DNA of 60,864 nt, the filler included, from Deltaproteobacteria bacterium (lineage in GTDB: Bacteria > CG2-30-53-67): the NCBI GenBank assembly GCA_013151235.1. It is 5 parts of 5 records of this genome, joined end to end, with 100 filler letters (N's around TTAATTAATTAA, not from the genome) between each part and the next. Parts side by side here need not be neighbours in the genome. Positions count along the whole stretch, not along the records: positions 42,237 to 54,838 come from JAADIO010000073.1; 4 more parts are not named here. One strand, written 5' to 3'. A program made the translations under genes and the position numbers. The notes under the pieces are model-generated. The model saw only the letters and a list, made by a program, of their open reading frames with translations, ran no database searches and was not told the DNA's origin. Of this stretch, positions 2,522-54,938 are shown piece by piece (within the stretch, counting starts at the first letter, position 1; each line of letters starts with the position of its first letter).

Positions 2522-2795
2522 TTTTTTCTCCTTTGTTCATCTCTGGATTTTATTCCGATCATGTCCGGCGATGGGCCTCCGGTAAGTTGACAGGACAACA
2601 ACATATCATTAAGATTGAAACAATACAAGATCGGCTTCATAATTTTTTATACAAACAAGAAATTTTTTGGTATACTACAAGCTCTTTCCTGCGATTCGTT
2701 CATGTAGAGCCTGAAGGAAAAAGCCGTAGGGGGGACTTTTTCTTTCTGAACGATACTGTTGCTGTGAGAACCGATAAACCGAATCAGGGTCGTGG

Positions 2796-3806: not shown

Positions 3807-3818
3807 GGAGGATTTCAT

Positions 3819-4322
3819 ATGGACCGGGAGGCGTTGATCCGGAACATCCAAAGAGCGATTCAAACGGAACGGGATGGGAATCTTTATTACATGCGGGCGG
3901 CCGAGGCGACAAAAGATTCGAAGGCCGAGGCCATGTTCAATCAACTGGCCAGGGATGAACTTTACCATATTAACGTGCTGGAAGACTTTTACAGCGATCT
4001 TCTGCAGAACGTGCCCGGGGAGCGGGTCGAGGGATTCCCCATTTTTGAGGATCGGAAGAAGGAACTGGGCGGAGCCATGCCTGAATTCGGGAATGATTAC
4101 GAGGTCCTGCAGAAAGCCCTGAGCGACGAGATCGAAGCCCGGGACTATTACCGGAAGAAGGCCGGTCAGTTTGAAGAGATCAAGGCGAAGGACCTCTTCC
4201 TGGACCTGGCGGAGATGGAGGAGGGGCATGTCCGTCTCCTGCAGGCGGAAATCGATTTCCTGGAGAAAACCGGGTTTTACTTTGACCATATGGAGTTTGA
4301 TGTGGAGGGCGAAAAAGGCTGA
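3819..4322 (+). CDS. Rubrerythrin/ferritin-like di-iron protein
   Basis: Duplicated E..G..YY / LA.DE..H and E..ARDYY / LAEMEEGH helix motifs. Confidence 0.88.
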   Translation: MDREALIRNIQRAIQTERDGNLYYMRAAEATKDSKAEAMFNQLARDELYHINVLEDFYSDLLQNVPGERVEGFPIFEDRKKELGGAMPEFGNDYEVLQKALSDEIEARDYYRKKAGQFEEIKAKDLFLDLAEMEEGHVRLLQAEIDFLEKTGFYFDHMEFDVEGEKG

Positions 4323-4394
4323 GGGCTTTGATGAAATAGTTACCGATCCATCAAGCACGATTGGGGGCGGCGCGACGAAAGGGGGTCTAGGGAA

Positions 4395-4607
4395 ATGGAT
4401 TGTCCGAAATGCGGTGCACGAAAGATGTCTGTGGATCAACCGGTTTATTTCAACAAAGACAACCAGGAAGGGGGCTTTCTGTACCAGGAGAAGATTTACC
4501 GTTGCCGGCTCTGCGGGAAGATGCTCTTCGTTCATAAAAACTTACAAGTAAGCAAGAAAAAGTTTATCAAAGGGCAGGTAATTACCGGCGGGTACGAAGA
4601 TCTGTAA
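4395..4607 (+). CDS. Small zinc-ribbon hypothetical protein
   Basis: CPKC...CRLC pairs in 70 aa. Confidence 0.6.
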
Positions 4608-4663
4608 GGGTGGTGCCCGTCAACCGTTTTATGCGACAATCACAAACAGGAAAGGAGAACGGG

Positions 4664-4825
4664 ATGCAGAAGTGGACTTGTACGGTGTGCGGTTATGAGT
4701 ATGATCCTGAAGTGGGTGATCCGGACAATGGTGTGGCGGCAGGGACGGCCTTTGAAGATGTTCCCGAGGATTGGGTCTGTCCGATCTGCGGAGCGGGGAA
4801 GGATCAGTTCGAGGTGAATGCGTAA
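4664..4825 (+). CDS. Rubredoxin
   Basis: [23 protein letters not shown]...[22 protein letters not shown]. Confidence 0.97.
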
Positions 4826-4871
4826 GAAAACTGAGCGGGGCGTTCGAAGACCGGCTCGCCCGGAGTGAAAG

Positions 4872-6503
4872 ATGAAGGCTGCCGAATTGTTCGTGAAATG
4901 CCTGGAGAACGAGAAGGTCCACCATATCTTCGGGGTTCCCGGCGAAGAAAACATGGACCTCCTCGATGCATTGATCGATTCTCCCATTGAGTTCGTCGCC
5001 ACTCGTCATGAACAGGGGGCGGCCTTCATGGCCGATGTCTACGGTCGCCTGACGGGAAAGGCGGGGGTCTGTCTGGCGACCCTCGGGCCGGGTGCGACCA
5101 ACCTGATCACCGGTGTGGCCGATGCCTTTCTCGACCGCTCTCCCCTGGTGGCGATCTCCGGCCAGACGAAGCGTGAACTGCTCCATAAGGAGTCGCACCA
5201 GCATATCGATATTGTTCAAACCTTTAAGCAGATTACGAAATGGAATGTCGCCGTCGGGCTCTCCCGGACGATCCCCGAGGTTGTGCGGAAGGCCTTCAAG
5301 GTTGCCCAGACGGAAAAGCCGGGGCCCTGTCACATTGAACTGCCGGAAGACGTTGCGGCGATGGAAACGGAGGGCGCGCCGCTATCAGTGAAAGGCTTCA
5401 AACGGCCCCATACGGATCACAATGTCTGTGCCAAGGCGGCGGAGATTATCCAGCGGGCGAGACGACCGATCCTCCTGGCGGGCAACGGGGTGATCCGCGG
5501 TCGCGCCTCTCATATCCTCCGGGATTTTGTCGAAAAGACGCGGATTCCCGTGGCCAATACCTTTATGAGCAAGGGAGTTCTTCCTTCGAAGAGCAACTTG
5601 TCGCTCTCCACGATCGGGTTGCAGTCGCGGGATTTTATCTCCTGCGGTTTCGACCGGGCCGATCTGATCATCGCCGTCGGCTATGATCTGGTGGAATATG
5701 CCCCCTCCCTCTGGAATCGCGATCATAAACCGATCGTTCATATCGATTTTACTCCCAGCGAAATCGATGAACATTATATTCCGGAGATTGAAGTCATCGG
5801 CGACATTGCCGCCAACCTGACCTGCATGATGGACGATATCGGCGCCGGTCGGCAGGACGACTTTTCCATGGTGCTCAAACAGATGATGGAGGAAGAACTC
5901 TATGCATATGCCCAAGACGGCGCTTTTCCCGTGAAGCCGCAGAAAATCCTCTATGATGTCCGGAAGGTGATGAATCATGACGATATTCTCCTCTCCGATG
6001 TGGGGGCACACAAGATGTGGGTCGCCCGGATCTATCCTGCGGAAGAACCGAACACGGTATTGATTTCAAACGGTTTTGCCTCCATGGGGTTTGCCCTCCC
6101 CGGTGCGATCAGCGCCAAGATGCTCCATCCCGAACGGAAGATCCTCGCCGTCTGCGGGGACGGAGGATTCCTGATGAACTGTCAGGAATTGGAGACGGCC
6201 GTGCGATTGAAACTTCCGCTGGTAATCCTGATTTTTAATGATTCAAAATACGGGCTGATCGAATGGAAGCAGATCAACCAGTTTGGCCGGACCTATGGGG
6301 TCGACTTTAATAATCCCGACTTCGTGCAGTTGGCCCGTTCCTTCGGGGCGGCCGGGTACCGTGTGGAAGGGGCGGATGAACTGGCCCCGATTCTGCGGGA
6401 GGCCTTTGACGCCGGTGTTCCCGCCGTTGTCGATGTTCCCGTCGATTATCGGGAGAACCTGAAACTCACGAAGAAGTTGGGAAAGCTGGTCTGCTATATT
6501 TGA
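4872..6503 (+). CDS. Acetolactate synthase large subunit (ThDP-dependent)
   Basis: FGVPGEEN, RHEQGAAFMA, GPGATN and GDGGFLMN ThDP-binding motif. Confidence 0.92.
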   Translation: MKAAELFVKCLENEKVHHIFGVPGEENMDLLDALIDSPIEFVATRHEQGAAFMADVYGRLTGKAGVCLATLGPGATNLITGVADAFLDRSPLVAISGQTKRELLHKESHQHIDIVQTFKQITKWNVAVGLSRTIPEVVRKAFKVAQTEKPGPCHIELPEDVAAMETEGAPLSVKGFKRPHTDHNVCAKAAEIIQRARRPILLAGNGVIRGRASHILRDFVEKTRIPVANTFMSKGVLPSKSNLSLSTIGLQSRDFISCGFDRADLIIAVGYDLVEYAPSLWNRDHKPIVHIDFTPSEIDEHYIPEIEVIGDIAANLTCMMDDIGAGRQDDFSMVLKQMMEEELYAYAQDGAFPVKPQKILYDVRKVMNHDDILLSDVGAHKMWVARIYPAEEPNTVLISNGFASMGFALPGAISAKMLHPERKILAVCGDGGFLMNCQELETAVRLKLPLVILIFNDSKYGLIEWKQINQFGRTYGVDFNNPDFVQLARSFGAAGYRVEGADELAPILREAFDAGVPAVVDVPVDYRENLKLTKKLGKLVCYI

Positions 6504-13108: not shown

Positions 13109-14359
13109 ATGTCCATAAAACTGGTCACCAGGAATTTTGACCGACCGGATTCGCATACCCTGCGAGTCTACCGGGAAGGAGGGGGATACGAGACCCTGCG
13201 GAAGGTTCTTGCAACCCGGACACCGCAAGAGGTGGTGGAGGAGGTGAAACGATCCAATCTCCGCGGCCGGGGCGGGGCCGGTTTTCCGACGGGGATGAAG
13301 TGGAGCTTTGTCCCTCGGGAGACAGGAAAGCCCGTCTATCTCTGCGTCAATGCCGATGAAGGGGAACCGGGGACCTTCAAGGACCGCTTTATCCTGGAGC
13401 AGGATCCTCACATGCTGTTGGAAGGGATCGGGATTGCCGCTTATGCCATCGGCGCACGTTACGCCTATCTCTATCTTCGGGGAGAGTTCGTCGAGGCCGG
13501 CCGCCGGGTGGAGGATGCCATTGCCGAGGCCTGTGAGGCGGGCCTGCTCGGTTCCGATCTCCCGGACAGTAAATTCTCCCTTGATCTCTATGTTCACTAC
13601 GGCGCCGGGGCCTATATCTGCGGAGAAGAGACGGCCCTTTTAGAATCAATCGAGGGGAAGAAGGGATGGCCGAGGGTCCGTCCTCCATTTCCTGCCGTGA
13701 AAGGGCTTTTCGGTTCTCCCACCGTGATCAACAACGTGGAGACCCTAGCCAAGGTGCCTCATATCCTGGAGAAGGGGGCGGCCTGGTTTTCCGCCCTCGG
13801 GACGGAGAAAAGCGGTGGAACCAAGCTCTTTCCCGTCAGCGGCAAGGTCAACCGTCCCGGACTCTATGAGTATCCTCTCGGCACACCCCTCCGGACGATC
13901 ATTGATGAGGGGGCGGGGGGTGTCAGTGCCGGGAAAAAGATCAAGGGAGTCATCCCCGGCGGGGCCTCCTGCCCGGTCCTGACCGCCGATGAGATTGACG
14001 TTCCCATGGATTATGACGCCCTGGCCAAGGTCGGTTCCATGCTCGGTTCCGGGGCGATCATTGTTCTCGATGAAGAGACCTCCATGTTAAAGACCCTGCT
14101 GAACCTGGAACGGTTTTTTGCCCATGAGTCATGCGGGCAGTGCACCCCCTGCCGGGAGGGGACCCGCTGGATCGTGCAGGTCCTGGAGCGGATTGCGGCG
14201 GGAAAGGGGGCACCGGAGGATCCGGATCTTCTCCTCGATATTGCCGCCCACATGGCGGGCCGGACGCTCTGTCCGTTGGGGGATGCCGCCGCCGGACCGG
14301 TGCGGAGTTTTGTGACGAAGTTCCGTGAGGAGTTCCTGGACCCGTTGAACAGCATGTAA
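13109..14359 (+). CDS. nuoF: NADH-quinone oxidoreductase subunit F
   Basis: LRGRGGAGFPTG.KW, NADEGEPGTFKDR, GAYICGEETAL, ESCGQCTPCREG. Confidence 0.96.
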   Translation: MSIKLVTRNFDRPDSHTLRVYREGGGYETLRKVLATRTPQEVVEEVKRSNLRGRGGAGFPTGMKWSFVPRETGKPVYLCVNADEGEPGTFKDRFILEQDPHMLLEGIGIAAYAIGARYAYLYLRGEFVEAGRRVEDAIAEACEAGLLGSDLPDSKFSLDLYVHYGAGAYICGEETALLESIEGKKGWPRVRPPFPAVKGLFGSPTVINNVETLAKVPHILEKGAAWFSALGTEKSGGTKLFPVSGKVNRPGLYEYPLGTPLRTIIDEGAGGVSAGKKIKGVIPGGASCPVLTADEIDVPMDYDALAKVGSMLGSGAIIVLDEETSMLKTLLNLERFFAHESCGQCTPCREGTRWIVQVLERIAAGKGAPEDPDLLLDIAAHMAGRTLCPLGDAAAGPVRSFVTKFREEFLDPLNSM

Positions 14360-30504: not shown

Positions 30505-30604
30505 NNNNNNNNNNNNNNNNNNNNNNNNNNNNNNNNNNNNNNNNNNNNTTAATTAATTAANNNNNNNNNNNNNNNNNNNNNNNNNNNNNNNNNNNNNNNN
30601 NNNN
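30505..30604. other. Artificial contig linker
   Basis: N run + TTAATTAATTAA + N run, 100 nt. Confidence 0.97.
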
Positions 30605-37781: not shown

Positions 37782-37881
37782 NNNNNNNNNNNNNNNNNNN
37801 NNNNNNNNNNNNNNNNNNNNNNNNNTTAATTAATTAANNNNNNNNNNNNNNNNNNNNNNNNNNNNNNNNNNNNNNNNNNNN
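37782..37881. other. Artificial contig linker
   Basis: N run + TTAATTAATTAA + N run. Confidence 0.97.
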
Positions 37882-42136: not shown

Positions 42137-42236
42137 NNNNNNNNNNNNNNNNNNNNNNNNNNNNNNNNNNNNNNNNNNNNTTAATTAATTAANNNNNNNN
42201 NNNNNNNNNNNNNNNNNNNNNNNNNNNNNNNNNNNN
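42137..42236. other. Artificial contig linker
   Basis: N run + TTAATTAATTAA + N run. Confidence 0.97.
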
Positions 42237-42463
42237 GCAAAGGGCGTCCTCCCCGCCGGAAGGGGATTCTTGAAGATCAGAGCGTAGGGACAGCGCACCG
42301 AAACGAGGCATTCTTCACAGGACTGTCCCCTCCGCCGACAGACCATCCGCTGAAGCATCTGTCCCATCCCCCCCCGGAGAGTGGACCCCTTGTAGGGAGG
42401 AAGGTTCAATCGTTCCCGGGCACGGATCTGAAATGAATATGCGGAAAAAAAGAACGAATCCAT
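42237..42463 (-). CDS. cas6: CRISPR pre-crRNA processing RAMP endoribonuclease Cas6 (3' truncated)
   Basis: LPPYKGSTLRGG.G..L...VC......C..C.....CPY..IF N-terminal motif; position at the end of a RAMP operon. Confidence 0.8.
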
Positions 42464-42471
42464 TCGGTCTC

Positions 42472-43269
42472 CTATAAAGCTTCAAGCCTCCCGGCAAGGA
42501 AACGGAGGATCTCCTCCCCTTCCCGGGAATGGCATTCCTTGAACCAGTATCCCCGCTGTGGAAGGGCACCGCCGTACACTCCGCCGGGGAAACGCCTGTC
42601 CAGAAGATGGATCCACTCCCCTTCCCCATAAAAGTCCACCTCCGAAGGACAAAGGATGAGAAGGTTCTGGACTCCAGGGCCACCGAGGACGGACTCCATT
42701 CGGTCCGTCACCACGGCCGTCTTCGTGTGCGGAAGCCTGGCCAAGGTCAGCGCCCCGCCGGCAAGGGTCGAGGCCTCGGAGACGGCACGTTCCCCAGCCT
42801 GTTCCTCTTCCTCCGTGATCCCCTGAGCCTTCCGGTCGGCGGCGCGAACCTGTATGATCTCTTCCTTCGTGGCCCCGATTTCGATCATGGCAGGGATATA
42901 TCCCCGGTCGTTTTCGGCAACAAGATCGAATTCTCTCGTCCACCGTTCCGGGGGAAGACCGAGTAGGGAGAAAACCTGATGGAGCGACGTCGGACGGTCG
43001 GCCCCGGCCTTCTTCCCATGGTGGTCGATCTCAACGATTTGATCCGGGTCGAGACCGAGATCATTCGGAAGCTCCACCAGCACGGGGGTCCTCCCCTTCT
43101 GCAGGGTGCCGGTGATTTCCTCCCTGTAGGCGGAAGCGGAGACCTCCGCTCCCCAGGCAAGCCCCTTGTCAAAGAAAGGGACCCCCTCCCGGCAGAGCAG
43201 TTCCGCTATCATCTCCATCTCGAGGTCATGTCCACCGAGAAAAAAAGTATAAGAAGATTCAACCATCAT
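42472..43269 (-). CDS. NrN-like DHH-family phosphodiesterase (candidate SAM-AMP degrading enzyme)
   Basis: FFLGGHDLEM, IDHH, TSL.QV, ANDRGYIPAM-like, IRxxDRxAQG-like motifs; located inside a CorA-containing type III operon. Confidence 0.75.
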   Translation of the reverse strand: MMVESSYTFFLGGHDLEMEMIAELLCREGVPFFDKGLAWGAEVSASAYREEITGTLQKGRTPVLVELPNDLGLDPDQIVEIDHHGKKAGADRPTSLHQVFSLLGLPPERWTREFDLVAENDRGYIPAMIEIGATKEEIIQVRAADRKAQGITEEEEQAGERAVSEASTLAGGALTLARLPHTKTAVVTDRMESVLGGPGVQNLLILCPSEVDFYGEGEWIHLLDRRFPGGVYGGALPQRGYWFKECHSREGEEILRFLAGRLEAL

Positions 43270-43280
43270 CCATCCTTATT

Positions 43281-45758
43281 TCAATACTTTTTCAAAGTTG
43301 GAAGATTCGTGCTTGCCCTATTTAATGGCCTGAGAAAATCATGTCTCCTCTTGTCGTTTTCCACAAACCACTTGAAGGTCTCATCCTCCGGACCCTGCCC
43401 CTGGACGAGGGGGGTATGGACAGGCTCGGTTACCTTTGCAGGATCGCCCAGGAGTTCCAGGGCGGGTCGGATGTCTTCATTCATCTTATCCCGGAATCCC
43501 TTGCGGAAAGCATCATAGGTAATGGCACCTGCAACTTCCGCCTCTGCAACTTCTGCCTCTGCCTCTCTGCCATATCGCCCCGGCCAGTCTTCCGGAGCAT
43601 CCTCCTTCCGCCAGACCTTTGCATAACGTGGCGAGGAGAAGATCTCATCCGTCGTATACCGATCTTCACGGTTTACCAGAAAGAGTCCTATCGGATCGAT
43701 CCGGACCTTCCCGAGGCCGATCGGTTTCCCCGTTCCGATCTTGTGGCGGAATGCCTCCGTCGGCCGGAGTGCGTAGCAGAGAAGGCCCAGTTCCCTTTTG
43801 CTCAGGTTGTCGAAATCGACATGAAAGTAAAAGACCGCTCCAGCACGGACGGGAGTGACACTTACTTTCTGCTTGCAACGGTCTTTCTCCTCGCAGGGGG
43901 TCGGTGGCTGTGGATCCGTCTTCCAGCACTCCTTCTCTAACTGGTCTGAGCTGTGATGGAGATAGAACTTCCTTCCCTGGGGATGATGACTCCCCGGTTG
44001 CAGATCCTTCTTGGCGATGTAGGCCCCCTGCCCGTCGGACTTCTTGAAGTAGAGGGCCGGGGAGGGGGGCTTGGGGGAGTCGAGGATCTTCAGGACCACG
44101 GGATCGAGATAGGGGCTGGCCTCACGACCGATGGGGGTCTGTCCGTCCTGATCGGTTATTCCCTCGAAGAGGGCGTCGGCAAAGCGAACCCGCCCCGCAA
44201 GGGCGCGTGCGGTATCCCGCTCTTTCTCCTTCCCCTCCTCAACAAAACCGAAGAGCTGTTCGGCGAGGGTGATCTGCTTCCTTTCTCCATTGAAGGGAAG
44301 AAGTTCTTTATCGACGGCCCGAAAGAAATCCCGGCCTCGTGCGCCTTCCATCCTGTTATTTACGATCCATTCGACCCGCCCCCGCCAGATGGAAGAAAGG
44401 GAGATCTCTTCAATGGTATTCCAGCGGGGATGCGGCTTGAAGAAAACGAGGTCTCCCTCCTTGAGACGGAACTTCTTCCCGTCATTGGCTGGATCCATAT
44501 TCCGTTTAGTATCCTTCGGCTCATAGGGGAGCTTCCCGTTCTCATCGGCGTCGGTCCTTGCGTCGGCCAGTTCATGGAAGCGATTCACGACATCATCGGG
44601 AATCAAGAAGGCCTCCCAAGCTTCCGGTTTCTCCGGACAAGGGATAAAGATTTCGTGTTTCTTTGTATTCGGGATGGCCCGGTCGCCCCAGCAGCCGAGG
44701 ACGCGGATGATCCCGCGGGTGTAGACGCTCCGTTCGTGATCCGGAATCTCGTCCCAGGGACGGGGAACTGCATCTTCACGCGCCTTCTGTGAAACAAGAA
44801 ACGAGTTTCTTGTTACATGCAACTGTGCATCGCCACACAATTCATGACTCCCGGTCCAGCTCCGCCTCTGAAGCTTCATTCCGTAATACTTCGGACTATC
44901 GGCACGGAAGGTCCGAAAAGTGAAACGTCCCGAATTTCGAATACTCAATCTATCTCCGATATAGACCTTGAGGTTCGGTTCGGGGAACATATTCTGATAT
45001 TCTGCGGGAAGGGGGAACCTATCGTTATTATTCTTTTGCAAGGTAGGAAGGGTAAGAGGAACAAGAAAATATTTATCCTGACCACCTTTTTCTTTCTCAA
45101 CATGGATCATCCCGATGGCGGAGAGGCTCTTTGTCATTTCCTTTCGGTAAGAATAAGGATATTCGGATCTTTCCAACACCCGCAGTGCCGAATTGCTCGC
45201 CGCCTCGGCGATACTTGAAATCAACCCTTTAAGGGTCGTGGCCGGGACGGCGGGCTTCCCTCCTCTTTCGTAGGGGGCGACGCAGGCGGGGCATTCTTGC
45301 TTACCCTTCCTCACGCGCTTTGCCCCGACAAAGATCGGGCTCTCAGACTTTAACCGGCAGACGATCCGGCCGGAATAGCTACCTTCCACATATCGGTCGT
45401 GCCTCACATGTCCGTTTTCCTGACTATCGAACTTCTCAACGCTCAGATCGGCCGGCCTGTTGTCTTTCAGGACCGGAACGAAATGGTAGGGATTATGAAA
45501 CTGCGGGGCATCGTCCATCCGCCCCCGGCCTTCTCCCCGCCCCTGGGGGTGCGCCCTCTGACGTAACGGACCCGGCCCGGCTCCATAGTGTCTCGTCTGG
45601 AGACCTTGCTTCCTTTTTTTCTTTTTTTTCTTTTGCTTACCCGGTGACGATCCGCTATCTTTTTTCGACCCTCCCTGGGCCTGTACCGATTTTTCTTCCC
45701 TGGGTGCAAGGCCCCGTTTCCTGCGCATCTCTTCCTGCCATTCCCTCATATCAACCAT
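43281..45758 (-). CDS. Large insertion-containing Cas7/RAMP (TIGR03986-like, type III-D)
   Basis: FHNPYHFVP, SG.I.C.L....PIFVG, PATTLKGLISS..EA, LFG.V, GRKFY.H, G-rich loop GTGKPIGLG. Confidence 0.85.
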   Translation of the reverse strand: MVDMREWQEEMRRKRGLAPREEKSVQAQGGSKKDSGSSPGKQKKKKKKRKQGLQTRHYGAGPGPLRQRAHPQGRGEGRGRMDDAPQFHNPYHFVPVLKDNRPADLSVEKFDSQENGHVRHDRYVEGSYSGRIVCRLKSESPIFVGAKRVRKGKQECPACVAPYERGGKPAVPATTLKGLISSIAEAASNSALRVLERSEYPYSYRKEMTKSLSAIGMIHVEKEKGGQDKYFLVPLTLPTLQKNNNDRFPLPAEYQNMFPEPNLKVYIGDRLSIRNSGRFTFRTFRADSPKYYGMKLQRRSWTGSHELCGDAQLHVTRNSFLVSQKAREDAVPRPWDEIPDHERSVYTRGIIRVLGCWGDRAIPNTKKHEIFIPCPEKPEAWEAFLIPDDVVNRFHELADARTDADENGKLPYEPKDTKRNMDPANDGKKFRLKEGDLVFFKPHPRWNTIEEISLSSIWRGRVEWIVNNRMEGARGRDFFRAVDKELLPFNGERKQITLAEQLFGFVEEGKEKERDTARALAGRVRFADALFEGITDQDGQTPIGREASPYLDPVVLKILDSPKPPSPALYFKKSDGQGAYIAKKDLQPGSHHPQGRKFYLHHSSDQLEKECWKTDPQPPTPCEEKDRCKQKVSVTPVRAGAVFYFHVDFDNLSKRELGLLCYALRPTEAFRHKIGTGKPIGLGKVRIDPIGLFLVNREDRYTTDEIFSSPRYAKVWRKEDAPEDWPGRYGREAEAEVAEAEVAGAITYDAFRKGFRDKMNEDIRPALELLGDPAKVTEPVHTPLVQGQGPEDETFKWFVENDKRRHDFLRPLNRASTNLPTLKKY

Positions 45759-47235
45759 GGACCGCCTCCTTTTGCAACTCCGCAATCTTTTGCCGGAATT
45801 GTTCTACAACCTCACTAACCTGAGGATTCTCCGCTTTCCACCAGTCCCCTGTTATCTCCGCCCGGCTGGCCCCGTACCCCTTGGTCGCGCCGAAACCGAA
45901 GGTGATGTCTCCCTCAATGAGGTCCCGGAGTGTCAGGGCAAGGAGGCCCCGCATCCAGGGCTCGGTCCGGGAACAATCGACTGTGATTTTCCCGGTCAGG
46001 CGCGGTTCCAGGACCGACAGGGCGTTGAACTTGGCGCCGTGGGCTCCGCCGCCGGTAAATCGGTCGATGGCAAGGAAATCCTGGAAGAAGCCGCTCGCTT
46101 CCTCTTCTGCCTGGACGAAATCGGTCACCTCCAGCGGAGAGCGCCAGCCGGCGGCTCCGAACAACCTGCAGGCGGGACAAAGCCGGTCCACTTCCTCGGG
46201 ATAATTGAGCGACCGGCAGCAGGGATCGCTGTCGGAATGACAGGCGGCCTTATCCCCTCCGAGGGTCCGGAGGATCCGCTCGGCCTGGCTCCGGAAGGCC
46301 CCGCGGAATGAGCGTGAGGGGAGATAGGCCCGGCTGTTCCGGTCGAGGATCGGCGCGTGATCGGGATGTGTTTCATCGCTTTCCTGCTCCTTGTCCTTCT
46401 TTTCCGGGCATCTGCTCGGGTCATTCACCAGGAAGGGGGAATCGAATGTGAGTGTTACATCAAGGACGATCTTTTCGATCGAAGGCTTGGCCGGAGAGCC
46501 GGCCTTTGGCTTCAATTCGTCGATCTCATCTTCCCCAAGTTCGGCGAAGGGAAAATCTGCCTGATTCTCTTTCTTGATCCATTCCCGGACGGCCTCGCCG
46601 GTCGCACGACGGACCTTGCCCAACTTCCATGAGAGCCTCCCCCACCCGTCTCCCGTGGAGGCGCCGAGGGTGACGGGGTCGTCCGGATCGTTGAATCCCT
46701 CCAGGGCATGGAGCAGGATCCCCACCTCCTCCTCGTCAAGGCCGCTGCCGGTGATCGTAACGGTAAAGGGGACGCCGGGGGGGACAAACTCATAATGTCT
46801 CAGCTTCTTCGCGCTCGCCGTCCGGGTCACCCGGTCGATGGCGACGGAGGCGGCCGCACCGGTATGCCGCACCGCATCCCAGTAGGGAGGTGGATTCGTC
46901 AGCTTGACATCCTTGATATAGGCATAATGGAATTCGGCCTTTCCCCCTACGGCATCTTTCTTCTTCGTGTCTTCGCTTCCAAGGAGTTCATCAAGCTTAC
47001 CGTTCGCCCAACGCCGCTTCAACCAGGCCCGGAGGTCTCCCTTGAGGGTCGAGCCCGGGATACAGGCACGATCCTCGTAGTCGGTAATCACCGACGAGAT
47101 GTCGATTTTCTCCTTTTTGCCGTTTTCGTTCTCTTTCGTCAGTGCATCCCGTTCCGTGGTGTCGCCGTCCCCGATATGGAGGGGAGAGTCCGTCGTCAGT
47201 GTTCCCGTGATCTTCCATCGTACCGGAAAGCTCAT
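45751..47235 (-). CDS. Cas7-Cas7 tandem RAMP fusion (Csm3-like x2)
   Basis: Two RAMP units: SPLHIGDG/IPGSTLKG/AIDR.T/LGA..G.GWG and SPFLV/LP..SFRGAFR/CPACRLFG/AIDRFTGG/FG.TKGYG. Confidence 0.87.
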   Translation of the reverse strand: MSFPVRWKITGTLTTDSPLHIGDGDTTERDALTKENENGKKEKIDISSVITDYEDRACIPGSTLKGDLRAWLKRRWANGKLDELLGSEDTKKKDAVGGKAEFHYAYIKDVKLTNPPPYWDAVRHTGAAASVAIDRVTRTASAKKLRHYEFVPPGVPFTVTITGSGLDEEEVGILLHALEGFNDPDDPVTLGASTGDGWGRLSWKLGKVRRATGEAVREWIKKENQADFPFAELGEDEIDELKPKAGSPAKPSIEKIVLDVTLTFDSPFLVNDPSRCPEKKDKEQESDETHPDHAPILDRNSRAYLPSRSFRGAFRSQAERILRTLGGDKAACHSDSDPCCRSLNYPEEVDRLCPACRLFGAAGWRSPLEVTDFVQAEEEASGFFQDFLAIDRFTGGGAHGAKFNALSVLEPRLTGKITVDCSRTEPWMRGLLALTLRDLIEGDITFGFGATKGYGASRAEITGDWWKAENPQVSEVVEQFRQKIAELQKEAVHG

Positions 47236-49075
47236 GATGCCCCTCCTTTCTTCGCAAGGTCGATCAGTTTCCCGTCATGGACCGGCAGGTTGACGGCGAT
47301 CTCGCCGTATCCGTTCTCCGGTATGTAGGGGCAGTTCGTCCAGTGGTCCCCTTTTTGGCCGTTCCGGGCGTACTTTTTTATCGCCCACGCCGGGAGGGGA
47401 AGCCCCTCTTTGAGCCATTTCTCGATCATCCGCTTCCCGTCCGCTTCCTTGCCGGTCTTCGCCTTGAGGACGAAGACGCTCCCCGCCTCGGTCAGGAGGT
47501 AGGGGTTGTAGGGTTTGCCGTCCTGAAAGCGTTTCCAGAGGTAGAATCCCCCGGCAAGGCTCTGGCGGGCATAGAAATGGGAGAGTTGCAGAGTCCTGTC
47601 GGAAAGCTCTTCCCAGATCTCTTCGTAGGCCTTCCTCAACTCGGCCTCGCCGCTTGTCTCGTCCAACTTCTCCGGATCGAAAAGAATCGCCGGTGTCTGG
47701 AGGGTGACGATCCAGAGTCCATTCTCGGCCTCGGCCTTCGAAGGGAAGTACGACGTGATCGACTCTTGCTTCTTCGGGACCTCCACATCAACGGCCACCT
47801 TGGTCTTCCCCATTCCCCGCAGACCGACGGCAAAGAGCCCGGCAAGCTGTTCGGCCACTTTGGATCGATCCGAATCACCGACCCGGGAGAGATCCACACC
47901 TCCGATCCAGCAGCAACCGTCGGGGCGAACCATCTCGTAGGCGAAGAGCTGTTCATCGGCCGCCTTGCGACGTTTTTTTTCGATGGCGGTCCGCACGCGT
48001 AATTCCGTACCAGGCGTCATCCATCCGAAATATTCATCCACATCCCCCCGCTCCTTCCAGTCCACATCAAATTTCGGGGCCACGGGAGGACCCTCGGGAC
48101 AGGCTGCCTCCTCCTTCCGGGCCATATCAGCTAAATGGATTTTCTCATTCTCTTTATACTTCACCAGCGAAAGGGGCGGACGGACGGGACGCTTTGCACT
48201 CCCCTCCGGGGCGGGAAAGGCGTGGAGAAAACGGATCTTCGTGAAATTCCTGCAAAGCTCCGGTCGTGTAGCGTCGAAATCGTTCGTGATGAAACAACTA
48301 TCCTTCCCCAGAAGATCCGCCCACGTCCGGGCCAGCGCCCCGGCAAGGGCCGCGCCGGGGATCTCGGTCTTCGATTCGAAGAGATTGTTCCCCACCTTAC
48401 GGTCGGCAAGACAGAACGGGGACTTGGGCCGGATTATAAGTGGGAAAGAGAAATCGGATGGTGGAGTGGTCTTTTGATCCTCGATCTTTCTTGTTGTGAG
48501 TTCTATTTTGACACCATCCAGTCTCCCGAAACCGACGGTCCGTTCCGCACCAAGGCTCGGGATCCAGCGCAGGCCGGTCTCGCACTGCCCCTTGACTTTT
48601 TCAGCATTTTCAGTCGAGGGCGCCATGAAACGGACCGTACCGGAAAAGGAAACCCTTTCGCCCGGTGCAAAGGGGGCTTCGACAACCTGGTAGGCCCCCT
48701 TGTCCACAGCGCCCCGGCATTCGTCGATCCGGATCCGGAAAGCGATTCCTTCCCTGTCCGCCCCATCGTGTACGAAGTCGTCGAAATGGAGTCGCCCCTG
48801 GACAGGCTCCACACCTCCCGGCCCGCTCCCGGATTTTTTTCCAAGGAGGCTTTTGATTACGGTGTCAGAGATGAAACCGGAATCGGCAAGACACAACTCG
48901 TCCCAGGCGCTTCCCGAAGACGCCCCTTCACGAGGGTGCCGGGCAGATAGTAACGGTCCTGCCGGTCCTTCGCCATGGGGGAATCGATACCGTACGGCCC
49001 TGCCGCCGTGGAATGGGTCAGCACCGGGCCTATCAGTTGCAGCGTGATCTTCATCTCAGCGTCATACATCCCCAT
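47232..49075 (-). CDS. Cas7-Cas5 fusion (Csx10-like RAMP), interrupted by a 2-bp frameshift at about 48907-48910
   Basis: LPGTLVKGRLREA in one frame continues as WDELC in another; later GAERTVGFG, IPGAALAGALA, RTAI, GMGKTK, TEAGSVF, NGYG motifs. Confidence 0.8.
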
Positions 49076-49081
49076 ATCCTC

Positions 49082-50521
49082 CTATTCAACAAGGTAGTCC
49101 CACAACAGTGCAAGGTGAAGCCAGCGAAGGACCTCGCCGCCGAAGGGGTCCTTCAAGTCTTCCAGCGCTTTTTTTGTCTCAAGGTCAAGACTCTTGATGG
49201 TCTTCTCGATCACCTTTATCGTTCCGGGATCTCCGCGGGTCAGCCCCTTCACGATGGCATAAAGCTTCCTGCGGGGGAAATTCTCCCGGAGTACAGCAAC
49301 CTTATCCAGAGCGCTCCCCATCTTCCCTCCCTCCAGGATCATATCGTCCGGCGAACAGCCGTTGGGGCAAATCTCACGCCGGTAGCCCATCAGGTCCCGT
49401 CCGATATGGTCGAAGGACTCGAGGACCTCATAGGCAAAGAGGTTTTCCTCACGGCTCTTCTCCTTGGCCAGTTCGGCCAGATCCTTTGCGAGCTTCGTGA
49501 TCCGGTGGATCGGAGCGTTGTGGTGACAAAAGACGATGCCGCCGCCGTGCGTGAGCCGGTTCCCATGAAATTCCCAGCTCTCCGATTCTTCATAGAAGCG
49601 TTTCAAAACCCGCCACCCAAGCCAGGCCGGGACAATCCAGATGATCTCGTCCCCGCCCCAGAGCAGGGTCTCCAGTCGGTAGTTATCTTTTGCCGAGATC
49701 CACTCCTTGCGGTCCTTCATCTCCGACAGCAGGGTCTTGAGAAATCCCCGACGGTAGTTCTTGATCGTGGTATCAAAATCTTCCTGGAGTTTTCTTGTGT
49801 TACAGACATCGCTCTGGAGACCACCGAAGCCGTTCCCATCGAGGTAGATGACAGCCATCTTGTGATGAAGGTTCCCCCGGGAACGATCCGAGGTAAGCTC
49901 GTCGAAATCATTGGCAAAGTTCAGGGGAACCAACTCCGAAGCTTTCTTTTGATCTACCTTTTTGAGCTTGACCAGTTCTTTCCTGTAAAATTCCTGCTTC
50001 TCTTCACGGCCGTATTTCCAGCGTTGCCAGACCGACTCGCTGATTTTCTTACCTTTAGGCCCAGCCTTCACGGCAGGCCGTACGCCGTCCAGTTCGCAGG
50101 GGACAACATTTTTGACTCGACTGGTCTTTGGAACAGCCACGGTCGGGGACCGCATCTGCTGGAAACGGTTCTTCGCAAGCAGCGTCTCCCGGACCGTGAT
50201 AAAGTCATCTTCGGCCCTGAGGAAATCAACGACAAAGGTGGCGTGTTTGAATCGAGGATCCTTCTTCAGACAATCCATCACAGAGTTGCAAATTTGTCTA
50301 GCTTTGGAATCATCAGCGTCACCGTCATCCATCTCAAAGCGAAAAAGTCCGGAAGAGGCGCCCGTGGTGACCGGTTCCAGCCGGGGTACGCGTTTCTGAA
50401 CATGACCCACAGCGTCGAGCATCAAGAGACTCCCCCCCCGGGCCGTGCTCAAATCCTGGGTATCGAAGACAAAGTTCAAGAGGTTTACCCCCTCCATGCG
50501 GAGATAGTAGGTTGCCGTCAT
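49082..50521 (-). CDS. cas10: Compact Cas10 (Cmr2/Csm1 family), no HD domain, GGDE palm motif
   Basis: N-terminal palm EGVNL.NFVFDT.DL...RGGS; second palm AVIYLDGNGFG...LWGGDE...LTHGGGIVF....PI......A..L...AK. Confidence 0.85.
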   Translation of the reverse strand: MTATYYLRMEGVNLLNFVFDTQDLSTARGGSLLMLDAVGHVQKRVPRLEPVTTGASSGLFRFEMDDGDADDSKARQICNSVMDCLKKDPRFKHATFVVDFLRAEDDFITVRETLLAKNRFQQMRSPTVAVPKTSRVKNVVPCELDGVRPAVKAGPKGKKISESVWQRWKYGREEKQEFYRKELVKLKKVDQKKASELVPLNFANDFDELTSDRSRGNLHHKMAVIYLDGNGFGGLQSDVCNTRKLQEDFDTTIKNYRRGFLKTLLSEMKDRKEWISAKDNYRLETLLWGGDEIIWIVPAWLGWRVLKRFYEESESWEFHGNRLTHGGGIVFCHHNAPIHRITKLAKDLAELAKEKSREENLFAYEVLESFDHIGRDLMGYRREICPNGCSPDDMILEGGKMGSALDKVAVLRENFPRRKLYAIVKGLTRGDPGTIKVIEKTIKSLDLETKKALEDLKDPFGGEVLRWLHLALLWDYLVE

Positions 50522-50539
50522 GATCCCTCCTTTCGTTTA

Positions 50540-52092
50540 TTACTTCTTCTTTGGCTTCTGTCGCGCAAGCCTGTCAAAATACTTGTACAGACGATTGGAA
50601 CACTTTATAGTCAGGAGCAACAGAAAGGTCGATCCTGCCATGGTCAATATGAAGACCAGCCACGAATGTTTCTTCCAATCCATTATCCAGATATTCATCC
50701 CCAGGAACCCCGTGGCCACGGCCAGGACCATCCCCACCGTAGCAACAACGGTCAGGCGTGTGGTCGCCCTGGTCTCCTGCTCCGCCTCCTGGATCTCGAG
50801 GTATTCATGGCTGCTGTTGATCTCCTTCTCTACTTCCTCGAAGAGTTCATCCACATCCATATGCTTCCGAGCAAGAGTATACATCTCGATCGCCTGCTGC
50901 TGGTTGGATAGGAGGGGAAACTGATAGAGATTCGCGAAAAGGGAAAAGTTCCAACGAAGTTTATCGAAGGTTTCATGCCAGTCCTTCTCCCCCTTTTCCC
51001 TCGCATCGGCGGAAATCTTGCTAAGCGCCCCGCTGAACCGGAAGAGGACCACCCGGATATAAAGGAGAAGAANNNNNNNNNNNNNNNNNNNNNNNNGAAG
51101 TGTTCGCAAAGATTCGGATCAGAGTCCGGCGGAGCCAGCATTGCGCCGCTATGATAATTGAATCCATAAAAAGTTCCCTCCTCTTCCCATCGCTTGTAGG
51201 TCCGCTCTTCGGCCCATTCCCGTTCAAAAGTCCGGCTGAGGTGGGTTGCATAGGGTGAATCCCCAGGCGCATCGACATTGAGCAGTTTGATCCAATGGCC
51301 CAGCTCCCAGGGCTTTAAGAAATGCCCATATTGACGACGAAGATCACCCCCTCCATTAGGCAGGATGGCACAAGCCCAGGTGAAAGTGCGGTTATCGGCA
51401 TAAATCAGGTCGGTGCTGAATCTGAAAGTTTTACCCTGGCAACAAATCGGGAATCGTAAGAATGATTTCCAACGTTCGGCATAGAGATCCTGTTCCGGTT
51501 TTATTGCTCTGTCAGCAAGAGTCTCTTTAGATCCGAATGATGCAGGTATGTCCCCCATTAAATCCAACAATCCTTTGCATTCATGCCGGTCAAAAGGTCG
51601 TTCCCAATACCGAAACTGTTCATTTAATTCCAGCAAATCATCCAAGGTCGGCATATCAAGTGATGTATCTTCTGGAACTTTTGTAAAAAAGAGTTCAATG
51701 ACCAGAAAACCGACCTGGAGCAGATCGCCTCCTTCGGGAATGTCGCGCCGTTCTTCCTCTGTGTATTCAAACAGGACAAGTCGTGGCTTCGACATGGATA
51801 TCGGCAGTATTCTGCCTTCCCTGAAATACATGGGATAGGTCCAATCCCATTCTTTGTCTACCTGTTCCAGTTGAAACCACTTCGCCCTTTTGAAAAGAAC
51901 TTTCCCTGTTTCAGGGGTAAAGTATTTCTCACGCCAATAACGATCCTCATGAATTTCTTTCCACTGGTAATCGGTATCGGAAGTACCTTTTCGAACATTC
52001 AGTCGTTGCAAGCTGTAGGCAAAGGGAAGAACAAACCGGGTAAAAGATGCAGGTTTTTCGTGTTGCGGTTTGCCATATTCAAGTTTAAGCAT
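50540..52092 (-). CDS. CRISPR-associated CorA-family membrane effector (spans a 24-N scaffold gap)
   Basis: Large soluble N-terminal domain, SNQQQAIEMY helix, two C-terminal TM helices with the CorA signature GFLGMN; RBS GGAGGTGG before ATG 52092. Confidence 0.82.
51073..51096. other. Scaffold gap (24 N) inside the corA-like gene
   Basis: Plain N run without the linker sequence. Confidence 0.95.
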
Positions 52093-52276
52093 TCTCCACC
52101 TCCCCTGCTTGTCACAATAAATCAGTAAGCCGCTTTGTATTTCACCAACGTGAAATAGAAAGCGGCTTTTTCGATACTCCCCCTCTTGGCAGACATAAGG
52201 CAGTAAGATAAGAGCATGGCTTTCTGAATTTCCCGCAGTCAGGACCACCAAGGCTGGTTTGATCCCTGTTTGCAAC

Positions 52277-52306
52277 ATCATAAACAAATATATTGACGTA
52301 TGACAA
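52277..52306 (-). promoter_or_regulatory. Putative promoter of the corA-cas operon
   Basis: TTGTCA-18 bp-TATGAT in an AT-rich stretch. Confidence 0.4.
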
Positions 52307-52478
52307 GAAAAACTTACCTCTTATGCATAAAGGGACGAAGGCGAAAGGGTCTATTCCCACAATGCGGATTTTGGGAGGTCGTCCTATACCAGCCACCTGA
52401 ATGGCTGATTACAACTTCATCACGATACAGTTGCCGCTGGCGGCATCCTTCCCTAACCGGCTTCGCAGGTGGTAAGCA

Positions 52479-53423
52479 TCACTTTCTCTCCTTCCGCCGC
52501 ACATGCTGTCTCCCTTCCAGGCTCCCGGCACATCGAAATCCAGTTACCTCGTTCCGATCGTCCGGCTCATCTCCGATGCGGTCCCATGCACTGAAGAATC
52601 CCGGTTCAAACAGCCATGATCTTCCCCTGATCACACGTTTCGTCCCTCTGAGCGCCCCCCTGGGGTTATCCTTCGGGCTCCGTCCGTAATAGCCCGCGTC
52701 ATACCAGTCCACACACCACTCGAAGAGATTGCCCACCATACCGTAGAGGCCGAGACTGTTCGGCGGGAAGCTACCGACCGGGGATGTCGATCGGTTGTCC
52801 CACTGTGAACCGCAACCATTGCACTCGGGATCGCCCAGGAAAAGGGTGTCTCCCCGCGGTTTTTTCCGATTGCGCATATTCCTTCCGCCCCTTGCCGCAT
52901 ATTCCCATTCCGCTTCCGTGGGAAGGCGTTTGCCCACCTTTGTACAGTAGGCTTGGGCATTGAACCAGGTCACGTTTTCGATCGGATGCCGCATCCCTTT
53001 GAAGTGCGAAGGGTTCCTGCCCATCACACGCTGATAGGCCGCCTGCGTCACAGGGTACCTGTCGATATAGAAGTCATCCAGGCAGATCTCGTGGGCCGGT
53101 TTTGAATCATCATCACAATCGCTCGGCCAGGTTCCGCATCCCATCCTGTAACAGCCGCCTCTCACCAGGACCATCCCCCGGGGCGCCGTTTCCCGTTTCG
53201 TCCCATCTTTTGACAGCTTGCGCGCGGAGACGGCGCTGCCTTGTGGAGCGATATGGCCGCTCGCCCGATTCCGGTCGGCGGCGGATAAAGATGCTCGTCC
53301 CGCCGGAATGACCAGGAACAGACAGAGAACGATCATGATCTTCCTCCGGAGCAAAATGCCCCGTTCCCGCCGCTCCGTTCCACGATCTTTTTCACGGGCT
53401 TCCTGCGGATTACGTATTTGCAT
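52479..53423 (-). CDS. FGE-sulfatase (SUMF1) domain protein, probably secreted
   Basis: MV.V.GG...MG, P.H...LD.F.ID.YPVT, P..NVTW, RLPTEAEWEYAARGG, N.LGLY.M.GNLFEW, RVIRG.SW, GFRC; hydrophobic N-terminal segment. Confidence 0.9.
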   Translation of the reverse strand: MQIRNPQEAREKDRGTERRERGILLRRKIMIVLCLFLVIPAGRASLSAADRNRASGHIAPQGSAVSARKLSKDGTKRETAPRGMVLVRGGCYRMGCGTWPSDCDDDSKPAHEICLDDFYIDRYPVTQAAYQRVMGRNPSHFKGMRHPIENVTWFNAQAYCTKVGKRLPTEAEWEYAARGGRNMRNRKKPRGDTLFLGDPECNGCGSQWDNRSTSPVGSFPPNSLGLYGMVGNLFEWCVDWYDAGYYGRSPKDNPRGALRGTKRVIRGRSWLFEPGFFSAWDRIGDEPDDRNEVTGFRCAGSLEGRQHVRRKERK

Positions 53424-53613
53424 CGCCGTTCCCTCCTTTCTTATTCATAAAGACGTCCATGAAGTTGATTTTGTTGCACTATGGCCGGGGGTAGAGTGCA
53501 TGCCGCCGGCCCCTTGAACATTACGAAAATTCTGAGAATCCGGAAACATGCCGGAGGTGTCATTATGATACAATTCACAAACTAACTCCGGCGATCGGTA
53601 TGTTCGATCATAA

Positions 53614-53957
53614 CGGGACTTTCTCGAAATCCTGGAGAACCGCCACGGCATGCGATCGACCCTCCTGACCAGCCGGGTCCCGGCGGAACAGTGGCATGAA
53701 CGGATGAAAAACCCACCCTTGGCCAATGCCATCCTGGGCCGTCTCATTCATAACGCCTACCAATCCGACTTGGAAGGAGAACTGACGCGGAAGAAAAAAA
53801 GGATTGACTTGCCCCATGGAAAAGAGGTAGCCCTATCGGAGAGGCGTCGCGGGGCGAAGACGGGTGATCAAAGAACACCGGAATCGGTGTGCAAACCCGA
53901 TCGGGATGAGTGTCCAACAAATTTCAGGATGGGTGTTCAACGTCATCAGGATACGCA
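53614..53957 (+). mobile_element. IS21-family remnant: istB 3' fragment plus right end
   Basis: RDFLEILENRHGMRSTLLTSRVP.EQWH....P.LANAILGRLIHNAY...L.GE..RK resembles the IstB C-terminus; followed by repeated gtg...gga motifs ending ...GGATACGCA. Confidence 0.78.
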
Positions 53958-54145
53958 TGATACTTGTTGAATTGCGGATCCTAGGGCATGTTGGTGTTCA
54001 TTGCGGCTTCCTTTTCGTAATAGATGTAAGCGGCATATTCCTCTTGCTCTGCCACATTCTTTTTATTACGAATAGTAATGATATTGCAAGATGTTAATCA
54101 TGCAGGAAAGTATTTGCTGGGAGTTGCCTGCCGCGTAGCGGGTTC

Positions 54146-54217
54146 GTCCAACACGCAGGTGAAGTCGGACAGGTATTCCGCTGCGCTCTATACCTGCCGC
54201 TACCCGCACCGTTAGCC
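54146..54217 (+). other. Integron attC recombination site
   Basis: Begins GTCCAAC (RYYYAAC), ends GTTAGCC, imperfect palindrome with inner caggtat/atacctg around ccgctgcgct; 72 bp. Confidence 0.7.
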
Positions 54218-54219
54218 GA

Positions 54220-54316
54220 TGAACTACCGCGCCGCAAGCAGCGGGGTATCAACTTCTCTATTTCGGTACATCACTCGCAGCAAGCTGCGGGGAATTAGAC
54301 CCTAAAAGAGATTAAA
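54220..54316 (+). repeat. Short twin-hairpin MITE-like element just after attC
   Basis: Direct repeats cgccgcaagcagcgggg and cgcagcaagctgcgggg, each able to form a hairpin. Confidence 0.5.
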
Positions 54317-54326
54317 GGGAGCATAC

Positions 54327-54838
54327 ATGAGATTCGATAGGAGAGAGAATAAAGAAATTACATATTATACAGATATCATTGAAGAGGCAGTTTATAACAA
54401 AGATTGCCAAAAAATAGAGGCCATCATTGAAGAGCTTTGGTTTGATAAGAAATCAGACGGTACTTGCACAATAATGATAGGCCCGTGCGATATCATTAAC
54501 CCAGATCCTTGCATTGTATGTGGAGCACAAATAGAGGAATTTAACTCAAGTAAAAAGGAAAATGGCATATTATTTAAGTTCCTTGACAATTTCCGATACG
54601 CCCACGCACCCACTCGAAGAGGTATCAGTTTTTGGCTGTGTCCAACGTGTGCTCCAAAGGGAGTTGCTGTGGATTTTCACAATATTCGTCTCAATATTGA
54701 GTCAGTGCGTCCCTTGACAGATGCCCTCCAAGACTTCTTGTTCAGAAATTCAATGAATGAAATTCATCAGGAACTTAATCTTCTTGTTAAAGACAAAAAT
54801 TCATATTTTGACAACCCGCTTCCTGGAAATATGATTAT
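54327..54838 (+). CDS. Low-GC hypothetical protein with CxxC...CxxC (cassette-like; 3' truncated)
   Basis: Open frame with GGGAG RBS; visibly AT-rich relative to flanking genes; CIVC and CPTC pairs. Confidence 0.65.
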
Positions 54839-54938
54839 NNNNNNNNNNNNNNNNNNNNNNNNNNNNNNNNNNNNNNNNNNNNTTAATTAATTAANNNNNN
54901 NNNNNNNNNNNNNNNNNNNNNNNNNNNNNNNNNNNNNN
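54839..54938. other. Artificial contig linker
   Basis: N run + TTAATTAATTAA + N run. Confidence 0.97.

Follow-up and report, generated by a model that had tools for sequence, protein, structure and literature searches.

A type III-D CRISPR-Cas operon that pairs a CorA-family membrane protein with an NrN-type phosphodiesterase and probably signals with SAM-AMP

The operon described here, seven tightly packed genes on the minus strand of a deltaproteobacterial contig, encodes a CRISPR-Cas effector of type III-D, III-D2 lineage, which probably uses SAM-AMP, the product of ATP and S-adenosylmethionine (SAM), as its messenger. It lies in a stretch of 60,864 bases, hereafter the window, made up of five pieces from as many contigs of a genome that comprises 73 contigs and 2.62 Mb; the operon contig (C28) occupies window positions 42237..54838 (12,602 bp), and the real neighbours of the operon are limited to that span. 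Three kinds of evidence carry this assignment: homology of the parts to characterised proteins, retention of catalytic and ligand-binding residues, and synteny in related loci. What the messenger is, that the CorA of the window binds it and what NrN acts on are predictions. The III-D2 system is represented in the PDB by 9wxh, 9wxi and 9wxj, and the type is taken here as PMC13294483 defines it, following Özcan et al. 2021. The genes fill 42237..52092 and are, in the order of transcription:

50540..52092, minus strand: corA, CRISPR-associated CorA-family membrane effector of about 517 amino acids (aa), identified by the PADLOC CorA models; holds a 24-N gap
49082..50521, minus strand: cas10, 479 aa, without an HD domain and with GGDE; 9wxh_B match, Pfam and PADLOC
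47232..49075, minus strand: cas7-5, Cas7.1-Cas5 fusion with one frame change; 9wxh_C match and PADLOC
45751..47235, minus strand: cas7-2x, Cas7.2-Cas7.3; 9wxh_D residues 17-460 and Pfam RAMP
43281..45758, minus strand: cas7-insertion, Cas7.4 with INS and CTE domains; TIGR03986 and 9wxh_D residues 519-1200
42472..43269, minus strand: nrn, DHH-family phosphodiesterase of 265 aa; NrN structures 9lq9, 9lqa and 9lqc, and PADLOC
42237..42463, minus strand: cas6, first 75 codons, severed at the contig end; PADLOC Cas6

A reading made earlier from the sequence alone had proposed this gene order and these type III-D gene calls, and both hold: PADLOC names every gene, Pfam and NCBIfam agree with its names wherever models exist, and matches to solved structures concur. 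The junctions between genes consist of gaps of 18, 6, 8 and 5 nt, one 4-nt ATGA overlap and one 8-nt overlap, and a Shine-Dalgarno sequence of the GGAGG type precedes all seven starts. None of the four long plus-strand open reading frames (ORFs) antisense to the operon belongs to a family in a Pfam search.

The Cas10 protein is an orthologue of the one in the solved III-D2 complex. It aligns over nearly its full length (residues 4-477) with 9wxh_B at E 3.5e-80, matches Pfam Cas10-Cmr2_palm2 and the PADLOC Cas10 model (E 7e-30), has no HD domain and carries GGDE at residues 289-292, as the sequence-only reading had described it. The residues that Mitsuda et al. name for SAM and ATP binding and for catalysis were read from the printed 9wxh_B alignment, with an offset of +20 for chain B. 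E8, N11, L12, S29 and L33 of the solved protein are kept as window E10, N13, L14, S31 and L35; G121, A122, S123 and Q186 as G54-S56 and Q122; D286, G287, F290, F306 and D307 as D228, G229, F232, F249 and D250; and G291 is kept as well. With E8 and Q186 present as window E10 and Q122, the acceptor site would suit SAM, although this pair is a weak discriminator. At the position of W124 the window protein has a serine, and the W124A substitution did not abolish synthesis in the tested complex (Mitsuda et al. 2026, PMC13294483).

Beyond homology to that complex, the strongest pointer to SAM-AMP at this locus is the NrN-type protein encoded within the operon. The DHH protein matches the NrN structures 9lq9, 9lqa and 9lqc at E 3e-30 to 4e-29 with its GGHDLEM and IDHH motifs aligned, and in PADLOC it matches C3a116 (E 5.7e-72) and 'DHH_CorA' (E 4.1e-43); it is thus an NrN-type phosphodiesterase with an intact DHH motif, as had been supposed from sequence. 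Characterised NrN requires D85/H86/H87 and cleaves SAM-AMP specifically, with no cleavage of cA2-6 or pApA (Chi et al. 2023, PMC10600005).

The protein encoded upstream of cas10 shows the features of a CRISPR-associated CorA, namely a distinct N-terminal domain joined to a CorA-like transmembrane domain. PADLOC CorA models match the translation on both sides of the N gap (E 9.7e-10 before it, 4.8e-32 after it), and the protein shows a GMN motif and two hydrophobic helices. Pfam CorA covers only residues 70-169 of the C-terminal part (profile positions 188-291 of 292), scoring 29.1 bits against a 27-bit cut-off, and an NCBIfam search of the protein gave no match. Relative to the corA products encoded upstream of cas10 in related loci, identity is 33-38% in the N domain and 37-46% in the C part. 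Within the gene, reading frames differ on either side of the gap at 51073..51096, where relatives carry 9-14 residues between the flanking alignments, and this is most simply explained by an estimated scaffold gap length, not a lesion.

That the two accessory proteins are instead housekeeping products, one a Mg2+ channel and the other an NrnA-type nanoRNase, and only happen to be encoded beside cas genes is extremely improbable. Pfam CorA does match the C-terminal transmembrane part, over its last 100 residues, but the full-length match, cytoplasmic domain included, that would mark a housekeeping transporter is not seen; the N-terminal translation of 420 residues has no Pfam or NCBIfam family and yet matches the CRISPR CorA models. 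Of the sequence results that would have spoken against the sequence-only reading, a CorA grouping with housekeeping Mg transporters and a DHH protein unrelated to NrN, neither was obtained. Both genes are translationally packed into the operon, and 27 of 80 related loci have the pair too, with NrN-CorA fusions in four and a frame shared by NrN and Cas7-insertion in two. The CorA-DHH link is itself old knowledge, as the PADLOC model names show; it was reportedly first noted by Shmakov et al. in 2018, an attribution echoed only by those model names and by Chi et al.

It is quite improbable that the messenger is not a SAM conjugate at all, with a cyclic oligoadenylate or some other nucleotide being sensed by the CorA of the window. 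cA6 has been suggested for an Actinomyces CorA clade (Hoikkala et al. 2024), and a close Cas10 relative, L068, adjoins a CARF-transmembrane (CARF-TM) effector yet keeps the SAM-contacting E, N and Q. Against this stand the operon-encoded NrN, whose characterised homologue is specific for SAM-AMP, and the finding that the closest tested complex makes SAM-AMP (PMC13294483). The sequence-only reading had also seen no CARF or SAVED effector on the contig. As far as the contig goes this stood, since none of its other ORFs has a CARF or SAVED domain, and a genome-wide search for Csx1_HEPN found nothing; a SAVED search was blank as well, but its positive control likewise matched nowhere, so that this blank carries no weight.

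Taken as a SAM-AMP system, the operon would work as follows. Cas6 would cut the CRISPR transcript, probably from the only array found in the genome, which lies on another contig, and Cas7-5, Cas7-2x, Cas7-insertion and Cas10 would assemble on the resulting CRISPR RNA (crRNA). The HD-less Cas10 would then be activated when foreign RNA is bound that is complementary but whose 3′ anti-tag does not match, and it would join ATP to the 3′-OH of SAM to give SAM-AMP. SAM-AMP binding by the CorA-family protein's cytoplasmic domain would disturb the membrane and arrest growth, and the target RNA would be cut by the aspartate of Cas7.1 and perhaps also by that of Cas7.2 (D45).

Whether a second conjugate, SAM-AMP2, would be made as well may turn on the Lid loop of Cas7-5. 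The main ORF of the window Cas7-5 aligns with 9wxh_C at E 1.3e-105 (residues 31-539 against 91-609) and is matched by the III-D Csm4/Cas5 PADLOC model (E 1.9e-75), but nine residues of the Lid loop, including W351, are missing. In the tested complex W351 is needed for SAM-AMP2 and not for SAM-AMP, and W351A abolished SAM-AMP2 (Mitsuda et al. 2026, PMC13294483). By alignment, the 37-residue loop of the W351 type is found in only three of 62 related Cas7-5 proteins (L034, L056 and L077), from loci that all have Cas7-2x and Cas7-insertion in one frame (Cas7x3), all have CorA and all lack NrN; all 29 NrN-bearing loci in the Cas7-5 alignment have the short loop and none has the W351 loop, the rows being related to one another and not independent. 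On balance we lean slightly towards a system that makes SAM-AMP and little or no SAM-AMP2. Synthesis of both has a somewhat less than even chance: the closest characterised relative makes both (PMC13294483), and the short loop of the window protein retains a conserved tryptophan (FGW), so that loss of SAM-AMP2 synthesis is uncertain. More tentatively still, split-Cas7 III-D loci with NrN may represent a distinct signalling variant that lacks the W351 Lid loop, makes SAM-AMP only and couples this messenger with the NrN specific for it. If so, the few Cas7x3 loci with the W351 loop would also make SAM-AMP2 and use other accessory genes.

The remaining backbone subunits follow the solved complex closely. 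Cas7-2x aligns with 9wxh_D residues 17-460 (E 6.1e-83), matches PADLOC Cas7_IIId (E 2.4e-50), contains two Pfam RAMP stretches (E 1.5e-37) and keeps the four-Cys zinc finger of Cas7.3. Its Cas7.2 portion has D45 where the solved protein has Q52, a position that is D in 11 and E in 31 of 61 aligned sequences (60 relatives and the window), and the window complex might cut target RNA at two sites (Cas7.1 D31 and Cas7.2 D45) instead of one. Cas7-insertion aligns with 9wxh_D residues 519-1200 (E 9e-92) and matches TIGR03986 (E 3.6e-85) and the PADLOC Csm3/TIGR03986 model (E 4.5e-85). We considered and rejected the possibility that the two genes are a single frameshifted Cas7x3: cas7-insertion has its own Shine-Dalgarno sequence, a GGAGG 8 nt before its ATG at 45758, and 117 of 120 homologues among the matches listed are stand-alone proteins of 674-882 aa. 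The first ~80 residues of Cas7-insertion (45518..45758, minus strand), ahead of the conserved FHNPYHF at which the domain starts, are very basic and of low complexity, and a KKKKKKKRK run within them is encoded by a TTCTTTTTT tandem repeat at 45610-45634; the solved III-Dv Cas7-insertion likewise has ~98 residues ahead of its FHNPYHF motif. The Cas6 fragment covers profile positions 5-68 of 296 (PADLOC, E 3.6e-20) and is the sole Cas6 match in the genome.

Several observations weigh against taking the operon as a working SAM-AMP system. The proteins on which the prediction of the messenger is based share less than ~50% identity with their nearest tested relative. Within the clade, messenger type cannot be told from the E, N and Q by which Cas10 contacts SAM, because 57 of 58 related Cas10 proteins keep them, with or without CorA, among them all three tabulated loci, of four, that lack both CorA and NrN (L003, L004 and L068); we accordingly rejected E8, N11 and Q186 as a messenger marker. 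The sole CRISPR array found in the genome is at the start of another contig (C70), a search of the genome for cas1 found none, and the place of the operon contig in the genome rests on binning. Finally, with a frameshift in cas7-5, an incomplete cas6 and no cas1 found, this copy of the operon may not work.

Whether it does turns on the cas7-5 frameshift. The first 72 codons of the gene are in another frame from the rest, the one frame change lying near 48905..48911, in the middle of Cas7.1. The corresponding 72-aa upstream ORF aligns with 9wxh_C residues 2-54 and includes the counterpart of the catalytic aspartate D29, and in blastx comparisons with relatives, which read straight through, both frames abut at the same residue (...RLRQA/WEEL...). 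An assembly error is plausible in a scaffolded metagenome bin such as this one, 12 contigs of which contain runs of 2-83 N; that the frameshift is real we think unlikely. Equally unlikely in our view is the broader alternative that the locus is a decaying, non-functional remnant in which a real frameshift splits Cas7.1 and the complex cannot form. Besides the frame change and the missing cas1, such decay would fit the C-terminal fragment of an IS21-family IstB gene upstream, at 53650..53970, and the outcome of a search of relatives: this Cas10 was found in none of 40 relatives searched, two of the same genus, six of the same family and five of the same class among them. There is, however, no lesion other than the frame change; conserved residues and ribosome-binding sites are kept in the two halves of cas7-5 and in the other genes, and the array has eight identical repeats and eight unique spacers. 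The absence of this Cas10 from the 40 relatives indicates that the locus was acquired horizontally or that the contig was mis-binned.

The array on C70 has nine 36-nt repeats ending in CTGAAAC, of which the last is degenerate and the other eight are identical. Its eight spacers are all unique and measure 36-41 nt, and on the expected leader side the array is cut by the contig end. In arrays adjoining related loci the repeats are 35-38 nt long, and many end in TTGAAAC, TGAAAC or TGAGAC. Compared by BLAST with 50,697 phage records, the array yielded nothing beyond matches of E 0.2 that overlap a repeat, the spacers matched nothing in the rest of the genome, and an Rfam search of the array and the operon contig returned no family. 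No second Cas10 or RAMP locus was found in this genome, which is 99.25% complete by marker genes.

How widely this gene combination occurs was assessed in 80 loci from species-representative genomes, retrieved by alignment of 28 Cas7-insertion proteins; six-frame ORFs of these loci were searched with the window proteins and with hidden Markov models (HMMs) iterated from the matches. Cas10 is present in 65 of the 80, CorA in 48 (mostly directly upstream of cas10), NrN in 35, and CorA together with NrN in 27. If only the 45 loci are counted whose Cas7-insertion frame is flanked by at least 6.5 kb on the upstream and 1 kb on the downstream side, CorA is found in 34, and 22 of those 34 also have NrN; many of the remaining loci are short contigs. 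Cas7-2x and Cas7-insertion form one frame in 17 loci and are separate in 63. One locus, L006, has a gene order identical to that of the window. A quick tree built from 59 Cas10 sequences places the window in a clade with 26 members (Shimodaira-Hasegawa-like approximate likelihood ratio test, SH-aLRT, 95), 14 of them with NrN; the NrN label needs at least seven changes on this tree, so NrN has been shuffled repeatedly. The combination, whose rarity the sequence-only reading had implied, is therefore not unusual: CorA and NrN recur together in those 27 loci, and a III-D2-CorA SAM-AMP system has already been shown (PMC13294483).

These loci also hold variations on the same parts. L068 is among the closest Cas10 relatives (50% identity), which lack CorA and NrN; in it (2585-5058, 13557-14168) the ORF of a CBASS-type effector with four transmembrane segments (4TM) abuts the cas10 start, a 2TM protein and a CD-NTase-like cyclase are encoded upstream, and the CARF-TM protein follows the array, the Cas10 nonetheless keeping its SAM-linked residues. 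Four Thermoanaerobaculia loci (L011, L026, L028 and L032) have Cas7-5, Cas7-2x and Cas7-insertion in one open frame of ~5.9 kb, which corresponds to a protein of ~1,950 aa with the order Cas7.1-Cas5-Cas7.2-7.3-7.4, with CorA upstream and NrN downstream. NrN and Cas7-insertion share a stop-to-stop frame in L005:7007-10066 and L014:9989-12991, and a frame common to NrN and CorA occurs in L046, L047, L062 and L064. NrN-CorA fusions are known (Chi et al. 2023, PMC10600005); we have met no description of the shared Cas7-NrN frame.

In 11 of the 80 loci a conserved protein of ~96 aa with a WDGH domain (PF25311) is encoded directly after Cas7-insertion or Cas7x3, the position that NrN occupies in the window (L056:10768-11061, L077:12042-12326, L025:12316-12642, L029:10196-10483 and six further loci; the row for L021 is a seed without a Pfam hit and is doubtful). 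NrN is missing from 10 of these 11 loci. The protein has 195 homologues, none of them functionally named, and its AlphaFold2 (AF2) model has a predicted local distance difference test (pLDDT) score of 94.9; the model matched no fold in the PDB at E <= 0.001, and 'WDGH' returned nothing relevant in full-text literature. CorA III-D systems may use it as an alternative accessory protein.

The surroundings of the operon are short. Position 42237, where the operon coordinates start, is the contig end. The other features of the contig and window are:

52277..52306, minus strand: weak promoter-like site TTGTCA-18-TATGAT, 10/12 matches, ~185 nt upstream of corA
52479..53423: gene with an FGE-sulfatase domain, between corA and the IstB fragment
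53650..53970, plus strand: C-terminal fragment of an IS21-family IstB ATPase (Pfam 3.1e-08), ~1.5 kb upstream of corA
30505-30604, 37782-37881, 42137-42236 and 54839-54938: artificial linkers of 100 bases each, N44-TTAATTAATTAA-N44, containing stops in six frames

The promoter-like site is no better than chance, one having been found against a mean of 1.4 in shuffles. Since the linkers are artificial, a gene or feature whose call spans one of them is an artefact, and the fluoride-channel genes below 42137 are not true neighbours of the operon because a linker separates the contigs.

The chemistry and the effector logic of SAM-AMP signalling were set out in 2023 and 2026, the later paper having settled what the messenger of one III-D2 system is (PMC13294483). 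The locus adds little alone; its value is comparative, and it bears on how an off-switch is paired with a messenger. According to a 2025 classification paper, III-D CorA loci encode none of the enzymes known to cleave SAM-AMP (PMC12669027), a statement that the window operon and the 27 of 80 loci with CorA and NrN contradict. Should the split-Cas7 loci with NrN indeed form a variant that makes SAM-AMP only, the locus would show such an enzyme to be encoded in III-D CorA systems. A full-text literature search, confined to articles without their supplements, found no description of NrN in loci of the III-D2 type. For experiments an intact relative, L006 for example, would serve better than the damaged copy in the window.

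Among the characterised systems, III-Dv of Synechocystis resembles the window in having Cas7-2x and a stand-alone Cas7-insertion as separate proteins (homologues at E 2.9e-10 and 2.3e-21), but it is much more distant from this locus than III-D2. III-Dv fuses Cas11 to Cas7-Cas5, and no Cas11 domain is seen in the window, where Cas7-5 aligns end to end with 9wxh_C. III-Dv also contains Csx19 (Mitsuda et al., PMC13294483); Csx19 is absent from the seven genes of the window insofar as PADLOC names all of them as other families, no Csx19 model having been searched by name. The III-B Cmr-CorA-NrN system of B. fragilis (Chi et al. 2023, PMC10600005) likewise combines an HD-less Cas10, a CorA effector and NrN, the last homologous to the DHH protein of the window (E 3e-30), but its effector complex is of another subtype (Cmr1-6). 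Its Cas10 was not detected from the window Cas10, for which a search of solved structures at E <= 0.01 gave only 9wxh_B, and the CorA proteins of III-B and III-D2 are only 12-15% identical (Mitsuda et al., PMC13294483).

The closest counterpart is the III-D2 complex of Gammaproteobacteria bacterium HyVt-522, which makes SAM-AMP and SAM-AMP2, acts through CorA, causes CorA-dependent growth arrest and cleaves RNA at a single site, Cas7.1 D29 (Mitsuda et al. 2026, PMC13294483). The window differs from it in several respects. Cas7x3 is one protein there and two genes with an 8-nt overlap here; the window Cas10 is shorter and lacks ~70 residues of Palm1 (native ~43-116); Cas7-5 lacks the W351 Lid loop; Cas7.2 has an aspartate in place of Q52; and cas6 stands at the 3′ end of the operon. 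Where III-D2 has a VapBC-like module, suggested by its authors as the off-switch, the window has NrN, which Mitsuda et al., where they cite it, cite only from III-B loci (PMC13294483); no PIN or VapBC match was found among ORFs of the contig, which extends only as far as its end inside cas6. In its core, by contrast, the window locus has the same plan as III-D2: an orthologous HD-less GGDE Cas10 that keeps the SAM, ATP and Mg residues (W124 excepted), a Cas7-5 fusion (with one frame change in the assembly) that keeps the catalytic aspartate of Cas7.1, Cas7.2-7.3-7.4 modules with the INS domain and the zinc finger, and corA directly upstream of cas10.

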